From: Candidatus Onstottus arcticum
Lineage (GTDB): Bacteria; Acidobacteriota; Blastocatellia; UBA7656
NCBI GenBank assembly: GCA_038040485.1
Contig: JBBPIE010000001.1
Span: forward strand, 152,014-216,013
Direction: 5' to 3'
DNA: 64,000 bases
The position numbers and the translations under genes are program-made. Shown one piece after another: positions 2,531 through 41,692 of this stretch (position 1 is its first letter; each line of letters starts with the position of its first letter). The notes beneath the pieces are model-generated. The model worked only from the letters and a program-made list of their open reading frames with translations. It was not told where the DNA came from and ran no database searches.

Positions 2531-2660
2531 AGCGAGGGCGCGAAGGGGATAGGGAGACAGGGCGAAGGGGAGACGGGGTGAAGGCATCTCGTCTCCCCTT
2601 CGCCGCGTCTCCCCCTCGCCCCCTCTCCCCTTCGCCCCTTCGCCCCTTCGCCCCTTCGCC
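2531..2660. repeat. Imperfect palindrome made of CGAAGGGG(A) / (T)CCCCTTCG tandem repeats, between convergent genes
   Basis: G-rich arm 2534-2583 and complementary C-rich arm 2590-2660 around centre 'aaggcatctcgtc'. The C-rich arm carries extra CCCCTTCG units. Confidence 0.8.
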
Positions 2661-3791: not shown

Positions 3792-4658
3792 TTAACCCCC
3801 GTCGCGCTCGCCATCGCGCTCGCCGGCGCGCTCAGTCAGCATTTGCCGATAAGCTTCGCTTTTGCCAATTCCGCGTGCGCGAGCGACTCGCTTGAGCGCG
3901 GTTTTCTTGTCAACGCGTTCAACGCGCATCAGTTCTTCGACGTCTTCAATCACCGGGCGGCTTGCGTGGACTTCCCCTGTGCGTGTCGCGGCCGGCGGAC
4001 CGAATAACAACACTATCTCGCCGCGTGTGCCTTCGGGAAGCTCGATCTCCGTCAGGTCGCCCCTGATGAATTCCTCGTGAATCTTTGTCAGCTCGCGCGC
4101 AACCACGACCCGCCGTTCGCCGAGCATCTCGCGCGCGTCGGCAAGCGCTTGTTTGATGCGATGAGGAGCTTCATAAAAAACAATCGTCATCGGCAGCGTC
4201 CCAAGCTCCGCGAGCCTCGCGCGGCGCGCCGTACGTTTGGACGGCAGAAACCCGGCGAAGATGAACTGATCGGTTGGAAGCCCTGAAGCTGCAACCGCCG
4301 CAATAAATGCCGACGCTCCGGGGATCGGCACTACGGGGATTCCTCGCTCGATCGCTTCCTGAACCACGCGAAGGCCCGGGTCGGAAACCAGCGGCGTGCC
4401 TGCGTCCGAGACCAACGCGATATTCGCGCCCGATTCGAGCCTGGCTATAAGCTCGCTCGTGCGCTCGCGCTCGTTGTGTTCGTGGTAGCTAACCGTCGGC
4501 CTGGAAATCTGATGGTGAGAGAGGAGCTTCCTCGTGTGGCGTGTGTCTTCACAGGCAATGAGATCCGCTTCCTTGAGGATGCGAAGCGCTCGAAGCGTGA
4601 TGTCTTCGAGATTCCCTATCGGAGTTGCAACTATGAAAAGCGTTCCTGACATGATCAA
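3792..4658 (-). CDS. rsmI: 16S rRNA (cytidine1402-2'-O)-methyltransferase
   Basis: N-terminus LFIVATPIGNLEDITLRALRILKEADLIACEDTRHTRKLL is the RsmI/YraL tetrapyrrole-methylase signature. Has a C-terminal ERDGERDGG extension. Confidence 0.9.
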   Translation of the reverse strand: MIMSGTLFIVATPIGNLEDITLRALRILKEADLIACEDTRHTRKLLSHHQISRPTVSYHEHNERERTSELIARLESGANIALVSDAGTPLVSDPGLRVVQEAIERGIPVVPIPGASAFIAAVAASGLPTDQFIFAGFLPSKRTARRARLAELGTLPMTIVFYEAPHRIKQALADAREMLGERRVVVARELTKIHEEFIRGDLTEIELPEGTRGEIVLLFGPPAATRTGEVHASRPVIEDVEELMRVERVDKKTALKRVARARGIGKSEAYRQMLTERAGERDGERDGG

Positions 4659-4855
4659 GCCCTTTAGTCCGGACGCTTCGATTATAGGCAGTCAAGGGGG
4701 CCGCGTATAATCGCTTTCAGTGTATTCGCGGAGATTAGCGTTATTCGTGGATGAAGTGGCCGCCAACCTGAATAGTTCGGCTACTGGCACTCTCGCCGCT
4801 CGCGTATAATCGAATGCGGGCAATCGTGGAAATTCGTGTTATTCGCGGAGGCGAT

Positions 4856-5287
4856 ATGCTCATATACAAGGAGGAGGTCTACTCCATAGTCGGCGCGGCG
4901 ATGGAAGTCTACAATACCCTGGGTGCAGGGTTTCTAGAACCCGTGTACCAGGAGGCTTTCGAGATCGAACTTGGGTCACGGGGCATCCCGTTCGGAGCCA
5001 AAAGGGAACTAAGAATAGCCTACAAAGAGCGCATACTCAGCAAGTCTTACGTGGCCGATCTGATTGTCTTCGAGAAGATCATCGTGGAGGTCAAAGCTCT
5101 AACAAATCTAACGTCTCGCGAAGAAGCTCAACTGCTCAACTATCTCAAAGCAACTGGCCACCAGGTCGGCGTGCTCATCAACTTCGGCTCTGATCGTAAA
5201 CTGGACTGGAAGCGTATGGTATTCACAAAGCTGTCCACGAATAACGCGAATCATCGCGAATTTTCCGGGGACATTGGCGAAGATTAG
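4856..5287 (+). CDS. GxxExxY family protein (PD-(D/E)XK nuclease-like)
   Basis: Matches the family pattern: EVYSIVGAAMEVYNTLGAGFLEPVYQEAFEIEL ... YVADLIVFEKIIVEVKA. Start chosen at internal ATG 4856 (MLIYKEE). Confidence 0.75.
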   Translation: MLIYKEEVYSIVGAAMEVYNTLGAGFLEPVYQEAFEIELGSRGIPFGAKRELRIAYKERILSKSYVADLIVFEKIIVEVKALTNLTSREEAQLLNYLKATGHQVGVLINFGSDRKLDWKRMVFTKLSTNNANHREFSGDIGED

Positions 5288-5402
5288 TGTTGTTCGCGGA
5301 GCAAGGCATGAAGTTTGACAGTCCAAACACTCTACACTATAGTGTGCCAGGCCGTTATTATAGCGCTATTCATAGTGGCCACGCTGAGCCACGGGGTTTT
5401 GA

Positions 5403-8400
5403 ATGTTCAGACTCGAAAAACTTGAGATCATCGGATTTAAGTCTTTTGCCGACCGCACAACTCTCGTCTTTGGCGAAGGGATTACCGGCGTCGTAGGCCC
5501 GAACGGCTGCGGCAAAAGCAACATCGCCGAAGCCATCTCGTGGGTGCTGGGCGAACAGTCCGCCAAGAATCTGCGCGGCGGCAAGATGGAAGACGTCATC
5601 TTCAACGGCACCCGTGACCGCAAGCCCACTGGCCTCGCCGAAGTGTTGCTCACGATGGTAGCTATCGAAGACATCGCTGCTCGCGACGCCCAGGAGCCGG
5701 ACGGCGACGACGAACTTGAGTTCGACGAAGCGCTCTCCAGCGCCCAGCGCGCCGCCGATGCCGCGCGCTCGCTAGTCGAGGAGCTTGCGCCGCCTGAGGA
5801 AGAAACAGCCGAGCTTCCGGAAGCCACGGCATCCGAAGCCGGCGAAACAACCGAACCGCTGGCGCAGCCCGACGACGTTGATTGCGCACTCTCTGATCAG
5901 GCAGGCGCAACCGAGCCAGCCACTGACGATCAATCGGCGGAAGTGCGAGGCGATTCCTCCCTCTCTCAACTTGAAGTCGAGCCCGTCGCCGGTGAGACAG
6001 ACGCGCAAACCGATCGCGAGGAAAAGAAGAAGCGTCGCTCGCCGCGCCCGCCCAAGCGCCGCACGATTGCAATATCGGCGGGTGAGCGCGTCACCGTCGG
6101 CCGCAGGCTTTACCGCACGGGCGACAGCGACTACCTCATGAACGGCCGGCCTTGCTTGTTGCGCGACGTTCAGGATCTGTTCGCTGGAACCGGACTGGGC
6201 GGCGCGCACTACGCGATCATCGAACAAGGCCGCATCGGGCAGATACTCTCTTCAAAGCCGCTCGACCGCCGCGGCCTGATCGAAGAAGCTGCGGGCATCA
6301 CTAAGTTCAAATCTCGCAAGCGCGCCACCGAACTCAAGCTCGATTCGGCCAAGCTGAACCTCACCCGGCTCAACGACATCATCAGCGAAGTCGAGCGGCA
6401 AGTGAACAGCCTCAAGCGGCAAGCGCAGAAGGCGCGCCGCTATCGCCGCCTCCGCGAAGAGATGCGCTCGCTGATGAAGGTGGTGTTCACCGCCGACCAC
6501 TACCGGCTCAGTGAAGCCAACGAGCGAGTTGCACGCGAGCTTCAAGAAGCCGGGCGCAACCAGACCGAGCTTGACACCCAACTCACCGAGCGTGAAACCG
6601 AGCATCGCGGTGTTTCGGGTCACGCGCGCTCGGCGGAAGACCAGCTTGCGGGTCTGCGCGAGCAGGCGGCGGCGCTCGAGCTTGAAGCGGACCGGGCGCG
6701 CAATCGCCGCGCGTTCGAGGAACAACAGATCAAGGAACTCGGCGCGCGGATCGAAGAACTCAATCGCGATCAACAAGCTTTTGACTCGCGGCTCGAGTTA
6801 CTGGACGAAGAAGCGAAGCGCCGCGGCGAAAGTCTCAGCGCGCTCGAGACTGAACTTGCGGCCGCGCAAGCCGGGCTGCTGACCTGCGACGGCGAATACC
6901 AGGAAGAGCTTTCGCGATTGCGCGCAGCCGAAGTCGAGATCGAAGCGATGCGCCAGCGAATGGTCTGGGAGATCGGCGCAACCGAACGGCTCCGGAACCT
7001 GGGCGCGAGCGTTCAGGATTCGTTTAAACGGCTCGAACTGAGGCAAACAACCCTGCAGGCTGAGTTCGAACGCGCGACGGCCCGGCGCGACGAAGCCGCA
7101 ACGGAGCACTCGCGCGTCCAGAGCGAATCCGACGACGGCCGCCGCCGCCTCGACGAACTTACTGCAAGAATCGCGGAGCGCGCTGCTGAAGTGATCACGC
7201 TACGCGACCAGCGCGCCGCGCTTCGCGCCGAGCTCGAGAAGACACAGGCCGAGCGGGTTGCTGCTCAGCACAGGCTTGCGTCGCTCGAAGATCTCGACCG
7301 ACACCGCGCCTACTACACCGACGCGGTTCAACAAGTGCTGTCGCCCGAACAAGCCACGCGCATAAACGCGCTTGGCACTCTGGCCGATTTCGTCGAGGTC
7401 GATAAGCCATACGAGGCGCTCGTCGAAAGCCTGTTTGGACGCGAGCTGCAATCCGTCCTCGTTCCCACCATCGATGATGCGCTTGCCGGCGTCGATTACA
7501 TCAAGAGCGAAGAACTGGGTCGCGGCGCGTTCCTTGTGGTTGGCCTGCACGGGGGCGAGGAAGACGCTTCGGATTCGGACGGTCGCCCAGACGACGAAGG
7601 CAGAGAGCCAAGCGACGACTCGCGAACCGAATGGTCGCAACAACCGGTCTTCGAAGTTGACGACAGAGGCCGCGTCTTCGACTCCGCGTCCGAGCCCGTG
7701 CCTATGCAGTTTCATCTCGAAGTGCTGCGCGCGATTGACCTGCTGGGGTTGAGGCCGGAAATCAAGAACGTAGTCGAACACGCTTTCCCGGAGAAATGCG
7801 GCGCGGCGGTCGTGCCGGATCTCGAAGCCGCGCTTCACCTCTCAATCGAGAACCAGTCGCGAATCTACGTCACGTCGGACGGCGAAATGGTAGTCAACGG
7901 GCGTTTGATCGTCACCGGCGCACAGGCCGGCCAGCGCGGGACTTCGCTTCTAGGGTTGAAGCGCGAGATCAAGGAGCTGCGAATTCAGAGTGAGACGCTT
8001 GGCCTCGAGCAAGAGCGGTTGAGCGGCGAGATGGACGACGCCGAGCGGAAGCTTGCGGGGATGGAAGGCGAGGCCGCCGCGCTCGACGGCGAGCTTCGCG
8101 AACACGAGAAGACCGCTGCCGCGCGAAGCTCCCAGCTCGAAGGGTTGGCACGGGATCTCGAACGCGCCGAGCAGCACGTGCGAGTCGTCGGGCTCGAGTT
8201 AGAGCAAACTGCCGATGAGCGGCGCGAGCAAGAAACACGTGACGAGCAGATCGCGGCGGAGCTCGCGGCTGCCGAAGCTTCCCGACTGAGCGTGCAGGCA
8301 TCGCTCGCGGAATCTCAGTTGTCTCTCTCTGAGATGCGGGCGGGCGCGGAGCAGATCTCCGAGCGATTGTCCTCAGCGAGGGCTTCGGCTGCGGCGCTTG

Positions 8401-9605
8401 GCGAGCGATTGCAAGCGGCGCGCGCTGAGATGCGGCGAATCGAAAGTGAGACTGAGGAGTTGAACTCGCGGATTAACCGCAACCGCCTCGAGATGTACGA
8501 GAGCCACGGCCGCATCGAGGAACTGACCGTCTCGCAGACCGAAGCGGCGGGCGCACTGGCGCGCTTCGAGGCCGAGCGCGCGTCGCTCGATGAAAGCATC
8601 GACGCCGCGAGCAAGGAACTTCAAACGGCGCGCGCAAGGACCGACGAGCTCGAGACGATGCTCAGCGAGATGCGCCAGGCCGTTTCGGCGGCGCACGACC
8701 GGCGAAGCCAGTTCGAAATCGAACGTGCGAGAATCGAATCCGAGGCCGAGCATCTCGCGCGCACCTGCCTATCCGAGCTTGCGATGTCACTCGAAGACGT
8801 GGTGACCAGCGTTGAGATCAGTGGTCAGTGGCCGGAAGGCGGAGGCCAGAGGTCAGAAGTCGGAGATCAGAAGTCAGAAGTCGGCAGTCAGGTCCCGGAT
8901 CATTTGGCAGAGACTGATGGGGAGCAGACCGATCTGACCTCTGACCTCCGACCTCTGACCTCTGATTCCGCGCGCAGCCGCCTCGACGAGTTGCGCCGAA
9001 AGATAGACGAGATCGGGCCGGTCAATATGATGGCGCTCGAGGAGCTGGAGGAGTCCGAGCAGCGGTTCAAGTTCCTGAGCGAACAACGACGCGACATACT
9101 TGACTCGATCCGAATGACCGAGGAAGCGCTCACCGAGATTCGGCGGAGGTCGCGCGAGCGATTCCGCCACGCGTTCGCGCACATCAATGAAAACTTCCAG
9201 CGGATGTTCGTCGAGTTGTTTGGCGGCGGGCGCGGCGAGATGATTTTGATCGACCAAGACGACGTGCTCGAGTCGGGCATCGATCTGATCGCGCAGCCGC
9301 CCGGTAAGCGATTACAAAACGTGTTGCTCTTGTCGGGCGGTGAGAAAGCGATGGCGGCGATCGCGCTTGTGCTTGCGATCTTCCAGTACCGGCCTTCGCC
9401 GTTCTGCATACTCGACGAAGTCGATGCGCCGCTTGATGAGGTCAACGTCGGCCGGTTCTCGGACAAAGTGATAGAGATGAGCCGCGACACGCAGTTTCTG
9501 GTCATCACTCACAACAAACGCACTATGGAAGCCGCGCGAGCGCTTTACGGCGTCACTATGCAAGAGCCCGGCGTATCGAAACTCGTCTCGGTCAAGTTCG
9601 AGTAG
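5403..9605 (+). CDS. smc: Chromosome segregation protein SMC
   Basis: N-terminal head MFRLEKLEIIGFKSFADRTTLVFGEGITGVVGPNGCGKSNI (Walker A). Long coiled coils. C-terminal LSGGEKAMAAIALVLAIF signature and Walker B (ILDEVDAPLD). Confidence 0.93.
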   Translation: MFRLEKLEIIGFKSFADRTTLVFGEGITGVVGPNGCGKSNIAEAISWVLGEQSAKNLRGGKMEDVIFNGTRDRKPTGLAEVLLTMVAIEDIAARDAQEPDGDDELEFDEALSSAQRAADAARSLVEELAPPEEETAELPEATASEAGETTEPLAQPDDVDCALSDQAGATEPATDDQSAEVRGDSSLSQLEVEPVAGETDAQTDREEKKKRRSPRPPKRRTIAISAGERVTVGRRLYRTGDSDYLMNGRPCLLRDVQDLFAGTGLGGAHYAIIEQGRIGQILSSKPLDRRGLIEEAAGITKFKSRKRATELKLDSAKLNLTRLNDIISEVERQVNSLKRQAQKARRYRRLREEMRSLMKVVFTADHYRLSEANERVARELQEAGRNQTELDTQLTERETEHRGVSGHARSAEDQLAGLREQAAALELEADRARNRRAFEEQQIKELGARIEELNRDQQAFDSRLELLDEEAKRRGESLSALETELAAAQAGLLTCDGEYQEELSRLRAAEVEIEAMRQRMVWEIGATERLRNLGASVQDSFKRLELRQTTLQAEFERATARRDEAATEHSRVQSESDDGRRRLDELTARIAERAAEVITLRDQRAALRAELEKTQAERVAAQHRLASLEDLDRHRAYYTDAVQQVLSPEQATRINALGTLADFVEVDKPYEALVESLFGRELQSVLVPTIDDALAGVDYIKSEELGRGAFLVVGLHGGEEDASDSDGRPDDEGREPSDDSRTEWSQQPVFEVDDRGRVFDSASEPVPMQFHLEVLRAIDLLGLRPEIKNVVEHAFPEKCGAAVVPDLEAALHLSIENQSRIYVTSDGEMVVNGRLIVTGAQAGQRGTSLLGLKREIKELRIQSETLGLEQERLSGEMDDAERKLAGMEGEAAALDGELREHEKTAAARSSQLEGLARDLERAEQHVRVVGLELEQTADERREQETRDEQIAAELAAAEASRLSVQASLAESQLSLSEMRAGAEQISERLSSARASAAALGERLQAARAEMRRIESETEELNSRINRNRLEMYESHGRIEELTVSQTEAAGALARFEAERASLDESIDAASKELQTARARTDELETMLSEMRQAVSAAHDRRSQFEIERARIESEAEHLARTCLSELAMSLEDVVTSVEISGQWPEGGGQRSEVGDQKSEVGSQVPDHLAETDGEQTDLTSDLRPLTSDSARSRLDELRRKIDEIGPVNMMALEELEESEQRFKFLSEQRRDILDSIRMTEEALTEIRRRSRERFRHAFAHINENFQRMFVELFGGGRGEMILIDQDDVLESGIDLIAQPPGKRLQNVLLLSGGEKAMAAIALVLAIFQYRPSPFCILDEVDAPLDEVNVGRFSDKVIEMSRDTQFLVITHNKRTMEAARALYGVTMQEPGVSKLVSVKFE
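8818..8965. repeat. Imperfect palindromic simple-repeat element, in-frame inside smc
   Basis: Left arm 'agtggtcagtggccggaaggcggaggccagaggtcagaagtcggagatcagaagtcagaagtcgg'. Right arm 'gatctgacctctgacctccgacctctgacctctga' is the reverse complement of the GTCAGAGG-type units. Centre contains GGATCAT. Encodes QWPEGGGQRSEVGDQKSEVGS...TDLTSDLRPLTSDS. Confidence 0.85.
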
Positions 9606-10408: not shown

Positions 10409-10560
10409 TGGTCAGTCAGTAGTCCGTAGTCCGTTGTCAGTAGTCCGTAGCTACGGATCATCGAGCATAGACGGACTCGTGACTACAGCCGCTGAGTGCG
10501 AGTTACGAACTGCTAACTGCGAGCTACTGACTAAGGACTACTGACTACTGACTACGTGCC
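10408..10560. repeat. Intergenic palindromic simple-repeat element (GTAGTCC/AGTCAGT units)
   Basis: Left arm 'agtggtcagtcagtagtccgtagtccgttgtcagtagtccgtag'. Centre contains ACGGATCATCGAG. Right arm 'ctactgactaaggactactgactactgactacg'. Confidence 0.85.
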
Positions 10561-14390: not shown

Positions 14391-15872
14391 ATGCACAACG
14401 AACTGCTTAGATCGCTGCCCTCGATTGAGCGGCTGCTTGCCGGTGAAGCTGCCGAGCGGCTCTCAGCAGCGTTGAACCGCGGCATCGTGCGCGACTTGTT
14501 ACGCGAGATCCTGGAGCAGATGCGGCACGAGATCGAAGTCCAAAGTCCAAAGTCCAAAGTCCAGAGTCCAGAGTCCGGCGTGACGGATCAGACGTTGGAC
14601 TTTGGACTTTGGACTTTGGACCTTCCTTCCGAGATCGAGCGGCGGCTTGAAGCGCGCGCGGCGGGTCTGACCACTCCTTCGCTGCGCCGGGTGATCAACG
14701 CAACCGGTGTCATAATCCACACAAACCTGGGGCGCGCTCCGCTTGCAAAAGCAGCGATCGAGGCGCTGGCCGGCGTGGCTTCTCGCTACTCAAACCTTGA
14801 ATACGACCTCTCCCGAGGCGAGCGAGGGCATCGCGAGTCGCATTGTCAGGAGCTGCTGGCACGCCTTGCAGGAAGCGATGCTGCCATCGTCGCCAACAAC
14901 AACGCGGCAGCCGTGATGCTTGTGCTGAATACGCTTGCGGAAGGCGGCGAAGCGATTGTCTCGCGCGGCGAGCTGATCGAGATCGGCGGGAGCTTTCGAA
15001 TTCCCGACGTGATCGAAAAAAGCGGCGCGCGATTGCGCGAAGTCGGAACGACCAACAGAACACGCATCGCCGATTATGAGCGCGCCATCAACGAGCGGAC
15101 GAAACTCGTTCTGCGAGTGCATCCTTCGAACTACAAGATCACTGGCTTCACCGAACGGCCCTCGGTTCACGAGATCGCCGAGCTCGCGCGGCGCGCCGGA
15201 ATTCCATCTTTCGAAGATCTCGGCTCGGGGTGTTTGATCGATCTTTCGCGTTACGGAGTTACCGGCGAGCCTGTTGTCCGGAATTCGCTCGACGCTGGAA
15301 TCTCGGTAGTCTCGTTCAGCGGCGACAAGATGCTGGGCGGCCCGCAAGCGGGAATCATCGCCGGCTCGCGCGAGATCATCGATCGCGTGCGTAAGAACGC
15401 GTTGATGCGGGCACTTCGAGTTGACAAGATGACTTACGCCGCGCTCGAGGCGACCCTGAGGCTCTATGAGCGCGGCGCCGCGGAATCGGAAGTGCCCGTC
15501 ATCCGCGCGATCGCCGCCTCGCGGGACGAGGTCGCAGACCGAGCCGCCAGCTTCAGCATTCTGGTCGAGGCCAGAACCAACGGGCGGGTCAAAGCCTCAT
15601 GCGAAGACGGCGAGTCAGTCATTGGAGGCGGCTCAGCACCTGACGCGAAGCTTCAAACCGTTCTAGTCTCGCTCGAACACAGCGAGGCGTCGGCGGCCTC
15701 GCTGGAAGCGCGGCTTCGATGCAACCCGGTTCCGATCATCGCACGCACCGAGCGCGGCCGCGTGTTGATCGACTTGCGCACGGTGGCTGCCGATGAGGAG
15801 AAGACGATTCTGGATGCGCTGGCCGCAATCGGCGAACCCGTGCCGGTGACTGCGGCATCAGCAGAGATGTAG
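14391..15872 (+). CDS. selA: L-seryl-tRNA(Sec) selenium transferase
   Basis: RRVINATGVIIHTNLGRAPL, the PLP-lysine region FSGDKMLGGPQAGIIAG and the overall SelA layout. Confidence 0.88.
   Translation: MHNELLRSLPSIERLLAGEAAERLSAALNRGIVRDLLREILEQMRHEIEVQSPKSKVQSPESGVTDQTLDFGLWTLDLPSEIERRLEARAAGLTTPSLRRVINATGVIIHTNLGRAPLAKAAIEALAGVASRYSNLEYDLSRGERGHRESHCQELLARLAGSDAAIVANNNAAAVMLVLNTLAEGGEAIVSRGELIEIGGSFRIPDVIEKSGARLREVGTTNRTRIADYERAINERTKLVLRVHPSNYKITGFTERPSVHEIAELARRAGIPSFEDLGSGCLIDLSRYGVTGEPVVRNSLDAGISVVSFSGDKMLGGPQAGIIAGSREIIDRVRKNALMRALRVDKMTYAALEATLRLYERGAAESEVPVIRAIAASRDEVADRAASFSILVEARTNGRVKASCEDGESVIGGGSAPDAKLQTVLVSLEHSEASAASLEARLRCNPVPIIARTERGRVLIDLRTVAADEEKTILDALAAIGEPVPVTAASAEM
14537..14624. 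repeat. Palindromic simple-repeat element, in-frame inside selA
   Basis: (GTCCAAA)x3-(GTCCAGA)x2 ... centre GACGGATCAGACG ... (TTGGACT-type)x4. Encodes VQSPKSKVQSPESGVTDQTLDFGLWTLDL in the N-terminal region of SelA. Confidence 0.85.
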
Positions 15873-26547: not shown

Positions 26548-26702
26548 AGAAGTATTCCCACAGTGGGGACTTGGTTGTTGACGGCCTGTGCTTGTCTTTT
26601 GAATTTCAAGTACCGGGCAAGCACCTGTTCGTTGAGTGGGGCCAATATATCGGCTGACCTGGGGCCTGTCAATGGTGGCACGCCGGGGGTTGTGTCCTAG
26701 GA

Positions 26703-26782
26703 ACCGCCAAGCCGCAAAGGCCGCCAAGATCATCCATAAGAACTTATCGAACTCTTGGCGTCCTTGGCGGCTTGGCGGTTAG
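26703..26782. repeat. Palindromic simple-repeat element (GCCAAG-type units)
   Basis: CCGCCAAGCCGCAAAGGCCGCCAAG | ATCATCCATAAGAACTTATCGAACT | CTTGGCGTCCTTGGCGGCTTGGCGG. Centre again contains GATCAT. Confidence 0.8.
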
Positions 26783-37900: not shown

Positions 37901-38346
37901 TCAAGCTCGACGACGCTCTTGAGGGTGTTACAAGGCTCGGCTTTGACACGTCGCCCTTCATCTACTTTGTTGAACGTAACCCTAAGTATCTGGATCTGGT
38001 CCGCGAGGTTATTCGCAGAGTTGATCTTGGGGAAATTGAGGGCCTGAGTTCGGTCGTTACCCTCACCGAGGTACTCACCAAGCCCAAGCAATCCGGCAAT
38101 GCCGTCATCGAAGCCGAGTACAGTTCCTTGCTGCTCACCAGTCGAAACTTCGCGCTCTTGCCAATCAGCATCGGAGTTGCTGAGATCGCTGCAGATTTGC
38201 GCGCGCGATACAGCATACGCACACCGGACGCTCTGCAGATCGCCGCAACTCTGAGCGTGGGCTGCCAGGCGTTCCTCACAAACGATGCCGCGTTACGGCG
38301 TGTAAACGACCTCAGGATTCTGGTCTTGGACCAACTGGAATTGTGA
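37882..38346 (+). CDS. PIN-domain toxin (VapC-like)
   Basis: LGFDTSPFIYF...SVVTLTEV...FLTNDAALRR fits the PIN acidic residues. The 19-nt overlap with the upstream ORF suggests the true start may be a downstream codon. Confidence 0.65.
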   Translation: MGPPPVIKLDDALEGVTRLGFDTSPFIYFVERNPKYLDLVREVIRRVDLGEIEGLSSVVTLTEVLTKPKQSGNAVIEAEYSSLLLTSRNFALLPISIGVAEIAADLRARYSIRTPDALQIAATLSVGCQAFLTNDAALRRVNDLRILVLDQLEL

Positions 38347-41577: not shown

Positions 41578-41692
41578 TTTTGGATTTTAGATTTTAGATT
41601 TTGGATTTTGGATTTTGGATTGCGCCGCTGCCCTTGTAGCTCTTGGTGGCAAGCTCGAGCTATTCCAAAATCCAAAATCCAAAATCCAAAAT
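41578..41692. repeat. Palindromic simple-repeat element (TTTTGGA/TTTTAGA units)
   Basis: tttttggattttagattttagattttggattttggattttggatt | gcgccgctgcccttgtagctcttggtggcaagctcgagctatt | ccaaaatccaaaatccaaaatccaaaatg. Confidence 0.85.

Follow-up and report, generated by a model that had tools for sequence, protein, structure and literature searches.

Organization of the region between rsmI and smc

The stretch of DNA analysed here, 64 kb in length and called the window below, contains a small gene for a GxxExxY protein between an rsmI-like gene and smc. The gene is accompanied by short direct and inverted repeats, which we call arms, and by two TATAAT boxes (Table 1).

Table 1. Features of the rsmI-smc region, with positions counted from the first nucleotide of the window.
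Feature	Position	Strand	Remarks
rsmI-like gene	3792-4658	minus	PF00590; divergent
Direct duplication, ~100 nt	first copy 4677-4756, second copy 4776-4854	+	TATAAT region plus arm
First CGCGTATAATCG, -10-like box	4702-4713	+	exact copy
Inserted module, approximate extent	4714-5300	+	right border well defined, left border only approximate
R-type arm 1 (ATTCGCGGAGATTAGCGTTATTCGTGGA)	4724-4751	+	three cores, 9-10-nt spacing, GGA end
Second CGCGTATAATCG, candidate -10 box for the GxxExxY gene	4801-4812	+	44 nt upstream of the ATG
R-type arm 2 (AATCGTGGAAATTCGTGTTATTCGCGGA)	4822-4849	+	3' end overlaps the Shine-Dalgarno sequence GGAGG (4846-4850)
GxxExxY / PF13366 PD-(D/E)XK nuclease gene	4856-5287	+	143 aa
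L-type arm (TCCACGAATAACGCGAATCATCGCGAAT)	5234-5261	+	inside the 3' end of the CDS; encodes STNNANHRE
3' hairpin (L arm, 11-nt loop, R arm)	5234-5300	+	canonical palindromic form of the repeat family
R-type arm 3 (ATTGGCGAAGATTAGTGTTGTTCGCGGA)	5273-5300	+	right end of the module; holds the stop codon (5285-5287)
smc promoter-like site, host	5315-5343	+	TTGACA, 17 nt, TATAGT; just outside the module
smc	5403-9605		other flank of the intergenic region

A preliminary description of this DNA had reported two copies of CGCGTATAATCG, each with a TATAAT box. Both were found as exact copies, starting at 4702 and 4801 and not at 4703 and 4806. They are the only two in the window, where 0.32 would be expected by chance, and two copies were reached in 4 of 100 shuffles. 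The GTTATTCGCGGAG-like copies, direct and inverted, were also present, but their coordinates had been off by 0-8 nt: the direct copies lie at 4721-4733 (2 mismatches), 4740-4752 (2), 4838-4850 (0) and 5289-5301 (1), and the inverted one at 5233-5245 (2 mismatches). Counted over the window with up to three mismatches, the GTTATTCGCGGAG 13-mer was not over-represented (21 found vs 24.6 expected). Matches with no more than two mismatches at 38008, 38505 and 41195 were rejected as chance occurrences inside unrelated coding sequences, which by translation are PIN-like, dCTP-deaminase-like and phosphatase-like, respectively.

The true repeat unit is longer than the 13-mer. It is an arm of ~28 nt with the consensus ATTCGCGGAGATTMGYGTTATTCGYGGA, found three times in direct and once in inverted orientation, and each arm consists of three 7-nt cores (ATTCGCG, ATTAGCG or ATTCGTG) placed 9-10 nt apart with a GGA end. 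Arm 1 is 89% complementary to the L-type arm over 28 nt, and 18 nt of arm 2 are 89% complementary to 5234-5251. Arm 3 showed 79% identity in the direct-repeat comparison with arm 1 as the reference copy. The ~100-nt duplication holds both upstream arms and both TATAAT boxes; its two direct-repeat segments are both 70% identical, with a start-to-start spacing of 98-99 nt. The 3' hairpin folds with 28 bp (-32.4 kcal/mol, z -4.2) and none of 200 shuffles was as stable, while in the minimum-free-energy fold of the whole region arm 1 pairs with the L-type arm and the ORF is enclosed. The hairpin was not called as an intrinsic terminator in a terminator scan of the + strand, and Rfam gave no match over 4400-5600 at E-values up to 1.

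No further good arm copy, no other CGCGAAT array and no second GxxExxY ORF was found elsewhere in the window. Since motif and gene are confined to this one locus, the repetition inferred earlier holds across genomes and cannot be seen within the window. STRR-like heptamer palindromes were also observed in the window.

The likely start codon of the GxxExxY gene is the ATG at 4856, with GGAGG ahead of it at the end of arm 2, and translation probably proceeds from this Shine-Dalgarno sequence overlapping the arm. For its transcription the gene probably relies on the conserved TATAAT at 4804-4809. Its promoter function is inferred, and no matching -35 was found for it in a consensus scan. Both boxes had been described among the motifs around the gene, but the first probably lies outside the module, and only the second is invariant in 5 of 5 orthologous loci. 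Box 1 is not fully conserved in orthologues (TATATT in L002-L005). It aligns by eye with GCAGTTATAATGTCT in the empty sites of L221-L223 described below, and because it aligns with GTTATAATG, which is also present there, it probably derives from the ancestral (host) rsmI-smc spacer and not from the insertion, as far as such an alignment can tell. The window offers a rare divergent context in which the GxxExxY gene depends on a promoter of its own, and the invariance of box 2 agrees with this. The smc promoter-like site matches 11 of 12 consensus positions and is kept in filled and empty sites.

The GxxExxY protein and its selection

The assignment of the ORF to GxxExxY proteins with a PD-(D/E)XK fold was borne out by profile searches, with matches to PF13366 (E = 2.7e-40, 137.8 bits, cut-off 22) and TIGR04256 (E = 3.8e-40, 136.9 bits, cut-off 35). 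PF13366 is the only Pfam match of the protein. The GxxExxY domain comprises residues 1-126, and residues 127-143 form a tail, predicted to be disordered, that is encoded by the L-type arm and the hairpin loop. The catalytic residues D68 and E78-x-K80 are invariant. The fold of the GxxExxY protein is Cas4/RecB-like, of the PD-(D/E)XK type, and the protein can be classed as restriction-endonuclease-like. A sequence search of the PDB gave no match. Profiles of PADLOC and PHROGs did not match either, which places the protein neither in a known anti-phage defence system nor in a phage family. A query with the window protein retrieved more than 4,000 GxxExxY homologues; the protein itself was found on one Logan contig. 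PF13366 was listed as of unknown function in a superfamily survey (PMC3424549). In a passage of another article (PMC8934634), GxxExxY is mentioned incidentally.

The dN/dS of the domain is 0.05-0.06 (window vs L002 and L004), which is below the values for smc (0.13) and rsmI (0.17), whereas that of the C-terminal tail is at least 1 in the same comparisons. The nuclease core is under strong purifying selection and the arm-encoded tail is not. From the invariant residues, the fold and the dN/dS we infer that GxxExxY is an active enzyme; there are no binding or cleavage data. In many homologues the arm DNA is read as tails such as SANNANLRE, NSRLFVDK and RRFAQIRG/IRG, in differing frames and orientations, and the conservation is therefore at the nucleotide level.

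Insertion of the module between rsmI and smc

An RsmI protein with 100% identity to that of the window is present in an Acidobacteriota MAG, and relatives are annotated as Blastocatellia. Orthologues that are ~90% identical (from soil metagenomes) keep the gene order rsmI, GxxExxY, smc and vary in how many copies of a 19-nt unit derived from the arm they have upstream. In L221-L223, where RsmI is 80-83% identical, the rsmI-smc spacer is 168 nt long and contains neither the gene nor the arms, and the surrounding synteny is shared (peptidase S8, TonB_C, rsmI, smc). Homology with the empty site picks up at ...CATGAAGTTTGACAG, directly after ...TTCGCGGA (5300). The left border was not resolved by the comparison of filled and empty sites. 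On the evidence of this comparison, the module between rsmI and smc is an insertion, that is, an acquired cassette.

Arm 2 is conserved in the orthologues, and arm 3 is decaying, to CCCGGA or CAGGGA. The arm order in the window is rearranged and non-canonical, with two R arms ahead of the gene and an L arm and an R arm after it. Judged from these alignments, the window copy looks old and appears fixed in its lineage.

The same arms with GxxExxY genes in other operons

Homologues with 65-76% identity from Chloroflexi and other MAGs lie at unrelated loci, in each case within a pair of genes of the same orientation. In L007 the pair encodes ABC permeases, in L008 CoA-transferase A and B, in L013 TldD and PmbA, and in L011 glycosidases. 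At their borders the upstream stop codon is followed by TCCGCGAATAACGCGAAT..CGCGAAT, and beyond the gene ATTCGCG..ATTCGCGTTATTCGCGGA is followed by T.A, after which comes the RBS belonging to the downstream gene. A complete replicon of an isolate, pTS1 of Treponema saccharophilum, has the layout seen across the GxxExxY family as well, with arms of a single core. A comparison of these loci demonstrates, at the level of sequence, that the arms travel with the GxxExxY gene into unrelated operons. The cassettes did not qualify as integron cassettes: they are single insertions in ordinary operons, no integrase was found among the called neighbours, and the arms, when read directly, are periodic cores and not the R''/L''-L'/R' boxes of attC.

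A second site with filled and empty states is found between CoA-transferase A and B. The two genes are 12 nt apart in L228-L231, and a GxxExxY cassette fills the site in L008, L225, L226 and L227 (the L227 copy is frameshifted). These cassettes share the identical borders TAA/TCC...GGA/TAAA..ATG. Three alleles at this site are only 64-70% identical vs 86-92% for the flanking genes; they bear different core types, and allele similarity does not follow core class. The divergence of the alleles fits re-insertion or cassette exchange at one site, or fast evolution. Presence/absence polymorphism was thus seen at two orthologous sites, rsmI-smc and CoA-transferase A-B. No target-site duplication was seen in the filled/empty comparison at either of them; the TTA/TAA bases at the element flanks belong to the palindrome and are not a duplication.

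A dispersed repeat family in many phyla

One genome per species was scanned with the pattern ATTCGCGN{2,3}ATTCGCGN{2,3}ATTCGYGGA. At least 119 stretches matched, where our own estimate of the chance expectation is ~0.1. They came from Spirochaetia, Treponema, Anaerolineales, Bacteroidales, Planctomycetes, Verrucomicrobia, Desulfobacterota, Gammaproteobacteria, Bdellovibrio, Patescibacteria, Hydrogenedentes and the archaeon Methanocorpusculum parvum, and among the matches listed several genomes had 5 or more separate loci. The usual order is 5'-TCCGCGAAT...loop...ATTCGCGGA-3', with TCC and GGA outermost. Among the matches listed, there were 29 short-loop, 9 mid-loop and 5 long-loop L..R pairs vs 6 in the reverse order (29 L..R vs 3 R..L for the short-loop pairs alone), and the outer consensus was TT[A/G]TC followed by CGCGAAT, giving the tip RTC next to the core.

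Within ~8 kb around each array, a GxxExxY ORF was near the motif in 8 of 126 loci (about 7%) among the matches listed; as only these neighbourhoods were covered, a cognate GxxExxY gene elsewhere in the same genomes is not excluded. Other arrays adjoin unrelated housekeeping genes, for example a hairpin between rpoB and rpoC in two Spirochaetia. PDDEXK_3 was the most frequent Pfam family among the small ORFs adjoining the listed arrays (3 of 85), and other families occurred once or twice each and were mostly housekeeping. All-against-all BLAST and Pfam scans of the ORFs adjoining the listed arrays revealed no second recurrent cargo family, and no four-helix-bundle proteins of 23S rRNA intervening sequences were among them. 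Three HU-HIG matches beside arrays all come from three similar loci. Gene-less copies occur in every orientation context and also inside coding sequences; in L131 host ORFs end inside an arm, and in L093 one ORF is split by the element. From the pattern matches it can be stated that the arms belong to a dispersed repeat family, mostly of gene-less hairpins, in many phyla.

Four operon insertions begin right after the upstream stop codon. Among the matches listed, 178 array tips are preceded mostly by TTA or TTG, with TGA in 10 and TAA and TAG rare. As TTA/TTG is part of the palindrome, stop-codon targeting was dropped as a general rule. A viral origin was rejected, with just 7 matching stretches in 2.9 million viral contigs. 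Among plasmids just 6 records matched, all predicted to be non-mobilizable.

Arrays flanking GxxExxY genes: enrichment, core classes and tip

In 80 GxxExxY loci from metagenomes, with 45-89% identity to the window protein, periodic arrays stood beside nearly every gene. Over a set of 84 GxxExxY loci the density of arrays was 3.26/kb in the gene flanks vs 0.19/kb elsewhere on the same contigs, a 17-fold enrichment, and shuffled flanks of the GxxExxY genes contained zero arrays. At least 3 units of one core class were present in 68 of 84 loci, and the units were spaced 9 nt apart in 209 cases and 10 nt in 137. L arm, gene, R arm is the commonest layout, with the downstream R arm beginning a median of 8.5 nt past the stop codon. 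The flanking genes were co-directional in 37 of 41 loci, and in 29 of these 37 the GxxExxY gene was in the sense orientation. Roughly half of 33 arrays listed as far from the gene were, by reading, of the resident class, a count that refers to contigs and not to genomes.

The core classes are CGCGAAT/CGCTAAT/CACGAAT (the clade of the window), CACGAAR, CRCAGAT, CACAAAT and CACGGAW. All 23 members of one protein cluster (cluster 4) have the CRCAGAT class. Mean protein identity was 0.609 within a core class vs 0.522 between classes, a difference exceeded in 0 of 2000 permutations. By this measure the core sequence covaries with the protein clade, a relationship that is confounded by shared descent. 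The classes are fuzzy, with some arms mixing core types (the window; L177). Across all classes, [A/G]TC stands ahead of the outermost core, whereas TA, AA or GA precedes the internal ones. The tip is thus universal, and class specificity resides in the subterminal cores. The canonical element can be written 5'-RTCC(core)n - gene or short loop - (core)n GGAY-3', that is, with terminal inverted arrays.

The suggestion of a repeated and possibly mobile module that includes the gene has thus been strengthened by its absence from the rsmI-smc spacer of close relatives, by the recurrence of the same arms with 65-76% identical homologues in unrelated operons, and by the dispersal of the arms in many phyla together with their enrichment at GxxExxY flanks. 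Taken on sequence data alone, the cassette is a gene-plus-repeat unit belonging to a widespread superfamily that includes gene-less hairpin members. It is apparently undescribed so far. We found no literature on the association of GxxExxY with repeats or on the repeat sequences, in a search that was incomplete and is no proof of novelty.

Constraint on DNA or RNA

Spacer complementarity is only 52% within elements, compared with 31% when different elements are paired, a value that 1 of 2000 permutations exceeded. Perfect spacer pairing was seen in just 1 of 15 elements, and the cores are conserved. In 27 elements with the L-gene-R layout, the sense-strand mismatches were 20 G·U vs 21 A·C. Selection on RNA structure was rejected on this equality, which argues against a role in RNA only. 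The poor pairing of spacers, the equal mismatches, the decay of arm 3 and the lack of an Rfam match point to a constraint on the core sequence and not on RNA pairing.

Comparison with known systems

REP/RAYT (REPIN) systems are reportedly treated by Nunvar in 2010, by Bertels and Rainey in 2011 and by Ton-Hoang in 2012. The GxxExxY cassette resembles them in having a small nuclease-type gene with a short repeat in inverted copies on its two sides. Further shared traits are the dispersal of this repeat, mainly in hairpin doublets without a gene, its covariation with the protein clade, and a gene that is inherited stably and kept by purifying selection. However, GxxExxY is a PD-(D/E)XK nuclease and RAYT is a HUH/Y1 (IS200/IS605-like) transposase; the arms are tandem 7-nt cores at 9-10 nt, whereas REP is a single palindrome with a 5' GTAG. 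Unlike the one-copy RAYT, gene-bearing GxxExxY units are found in many operon positions, and we take them to occur as many paralogues per genome. MITEs and minimal insertion sequences, for example the Correia elements of Neisseria, share with the cassette the terminal inverted arms, insertion polymorphism, intergenic or operon sites, co-transcription with neighbours and non-autonomous short copies. The cassette differs in that no target-site duplication was found, in lacking a DDE, HUH or serine/tyrosine recombinase, in its arms of periodic cores and in its coding capacity of one ~125-aa nuclease.

Free-standing homing genes (T4 seg/mob; the PD-(D/E)XK enzyme I-Ssp6803I) are likewise small nuclease ORFs between conserved co-oriented genes, with presence/absence between relatives and alleles more divergent than the flanking genes. 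Unlike the cassette, homing endonuclease genes have no conserved inverted arrays at their ends and no dispersed gene-less hairpins. The ORF-bearing 23S rRNA intervening sequences of Leptospira and Coxiella also have a small ORF within inverted repeats in a transcribed region, but their product is a four-helix-bundle protein (PF05635) and their host site is 23S rRNA. Cyanobacterial STRR heptamers and Rickettsia palindromic elements are similar as short tandem palindrome-forming units that are dispersed intergenically and sometimes lie in frame within genes. They have 7-8-nt units without spacer, in contrast to 7-nt cores with 2-3-nt spacers and the RTCC tip. We know of no associated nuclease gene described for STRR or Rickettsia palindromic elements.

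Interpretation and alternative explanations

Our best explanation, whose chances we regard as evenly balanced, is a nuclease gene with cognate terminal inverted arrays, whose product binds the cores, cuts near the tip and moves the cassette and the hairpins. Both the binding and the cutting are inferences. At either end of the element the protein would bind the DNA at its repeated cores, which recur roughly once per helical turn, and would cut at or near the conserved RTCC tip. Cutting would allow the cassette to be moved or copied, and likewise, by action in trans, the hairpins without a gene, much like RAYT with REP/REPIN or a transposase with a MITE. What counts against this explanation is that a gene held in place under strong purifying selection for so long could equally serve a domesticated function without mobility. 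Further points against it are the missing binding and cleavage data, the absence of a visible target-site duplication at either site, the small share of arrays with a GxxExxY gene nearby, the fuzzy core classes, alleles at the CoA-transferase site whose similarity is not that of their core class, the confounding of class and clade by shared descent, and the non-canonical arm order of the window. A wider proposal, which we put forward only tentatively and would not yet back, is that a superfamily of minimal elements of ~0.5 kb has gone unrecognised across phyla, with GxxExxY/PF13366 proteins as its mobilising nucleases and with ends of 7-bp core arrays and an RTCC tip, of which the gene-less hairpins would be non-autonomous derivatives.

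The hairpins might instead spread independently, with GxxExxY acting as a homing-endonuclease-like gene that cuts empty cognate hairpins, with repair then copying it into the loop; in that case the arms would serve as target and homology and would not be element ends. Most hairpins are indeed gene-less, a gene in its canonical place occupies precisely the loop between L and R, the core class follows the protein clade, and different alleles with identical borders at one host site fit repeated conversion or replacement. We nevertheless consider homing into hairpins unlikely, if still worth keeping in mind, as the empty sites at rsmI-smc and CoA-transferase A-B lack the arms as well as the gene, so that arms and gene arrived together or the intermediates are unsampled, and as arms of just ~28 nt are short for recombinational repair. 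It is improbable in our view that the nuclease has only a domesticated host function, in which it would, with specificity for structure or sequence, process or control repeat hairpins or cruciforms (genome maintenance, copy-number control) while the gene, now immobile, stays beside one repeat copy through descent. Near-identical arms with 70-76% identical proteins in different phyla and in unrelated operon positions, together with the insertion polymorphism, indicate movement and speak against it. As with RAYTs, a domesticated role is at the same time compatible with our best explanation.

The arms could also act only as cis-elements at the RNA level, forming a stem around the ORF in a polycistronic mRNA for processing, for insulation or to preserve translational coupling of the host genes. 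The protein would not recognise them, and the covariation of core class with clade would be co-inheritance. This would suit the prevailing co-directional flanks and sense orientation of the gene, the abutment of the arms on the upstream stop codon and the downstream start codon, the GGA or GGAGG that the R arm provides ahead of start codons, and the predicted fold enclosing the ORF. We judge an exclusive RNA role very improbable nonetheless, given that G·U is not in excess over A·C on the sense strand, that the spacers are poorly complementary and the cores conserved, that gene-less copies lie in all orientation contexts and within coding sequences, that the last arm decays in orthologues in which the gene is conserved, and that Rfam had no match. 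A local coincidence, that is, a lineage-specific tandem duplication plus a chance inverted repeat around an ordinary gene, would agree with a motif confined to one locus in the window and with a 13-mer that is not over-represented there. It can be regarded as refuted for all practical purposes, since these arms also stand beside homologues from other phyla and were found again at the loci of the genome scan.

PF13366/TIGR04256 is a large and widespread family, as the homologues retrieved with one query indicate, and its link to a repeat that covaries with clade gives it a testable function, namely to bind and cut arrays of 7-bp cores. The same link offers a plausible origin for the periodic hairpins found across many phyla. 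It also explains some of the odd C-terminal tails that recur in gene calls (SANNANLRE, IRG): they are in-frame translations of repeat DNA. Should simple tandem cores program the nuclease for its target sequence, few site-specific DNA enzymes would be as small. If the proposal of a mobilising superfamily is true, these elements would be a PD-(D/E)XK counterpart of the REP/RAYT or IS/MITE systems, and thousands of genes of 'function unknown' would be explained.

Periodic palindromes in the source genome

Periodic palindromes are abundant in the source genome, with no cognate proteins established for them. Apart from the GxxExxY cassette, the window holds four further ones that are intergenic, and others lie within coding sequences. 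The palindrome in smc is in frame and translates to a segment of ∼45 amino acids containing …GGQRSEVGDQKSEVGSQ…DLTSDLRPLTSD…. At the same position the smc orthologue of locus L002 (rsmI/GxxExxY/smc) carries a different 45-aa sequence, and the conserved flanks are shared.

Periodic palindromes and arrays in the window and at other loci
Feature	Location	Units	Context
Palindrome	window 2532-2660	GGCGAAGG/CCTTCGCC	intergenic
Palindrome	window 10414-10556	AGTCAGT/ACTGACT	intergenic
Palindrome	window 26702-26780	CGCCAAG/CTTGGCG	intergenic
Palindrome	window 41578-41692	ATTTTGG/CCAAAAT	intergenic
Heptamer-periodic palindrome	window 8830-8964	CAGAGGT/CAGAAGT/CGGAGAT, then TCTGACC	in frame in smc
Palindrome	window 14534-14624	(AAGTCCA)n ... 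(TGGACTT)n	within 493-aa ORF 14391-15872
Hairpin	L015 4016-4090	CGCGAAT	between two large ORFs, Spirochaetia genome
Hairpin	L095 6881-6955	CGCGAAT	between two large ORFs, second, different Spirochaetia genome
Long tandem array, single direction	L045 1526-1720	∼20 CGCGAATnnn

Sequences upstream of the GxxExxY gene

Comparison of L002 5790-5880 with window 4714-4723 indicated that the copy number of the 19-nt unit CGGACATTCGCGGAGATTC, 5' of the GxxExxY gene, ranges from ∼1 to 4 among orthologous loci. Directly 5' of the second TATAAT box, CTGGCACTCTCGCCGC (window 4784-4800) has the GG-N10-GC spacing found in sigma-54 promoters; similar sequence is present at the orthologous loci L002-L005.

Disrupted genes at GxxExxY loci

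A methyltransferase-like ORF is apparently split by a GxxExxY-bearing element at L093 (4848-5829); a truncated duplicate of the GxxExxY gene and a gap in the scaffold are also present at this locus. In L227 (2484-2940), a frameshift breaks the GxxExxY gene at the CoA-transferase site into two ORFs, and this copy is therefore a pseudogene.

Array tips and CGCGAAT arrays at other loci

In array classes CACAGAT and CACAAAT (metagenome loci L141-L220, e.g., L203, L201, and L218), the tip sequence is TTATCCACA, a perfect DnaA-box 9-mer. All 9 perfect copies in 321 kb are located at array tips. The match may be a coincidence or, by analogy with the outside end of Tn5, may reflect the use of a host factor.

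The long array at L045 shows that expansion of arrays is possible. The large ORFs around the Spirochaetia hairpins were read as rpoB and rpoC by size and order, without a domain search. Occurrence of the hairpin at this rpoB/rpoC-like site in two different genomes marks it as an old insertion that is tolerated in an essential operon.
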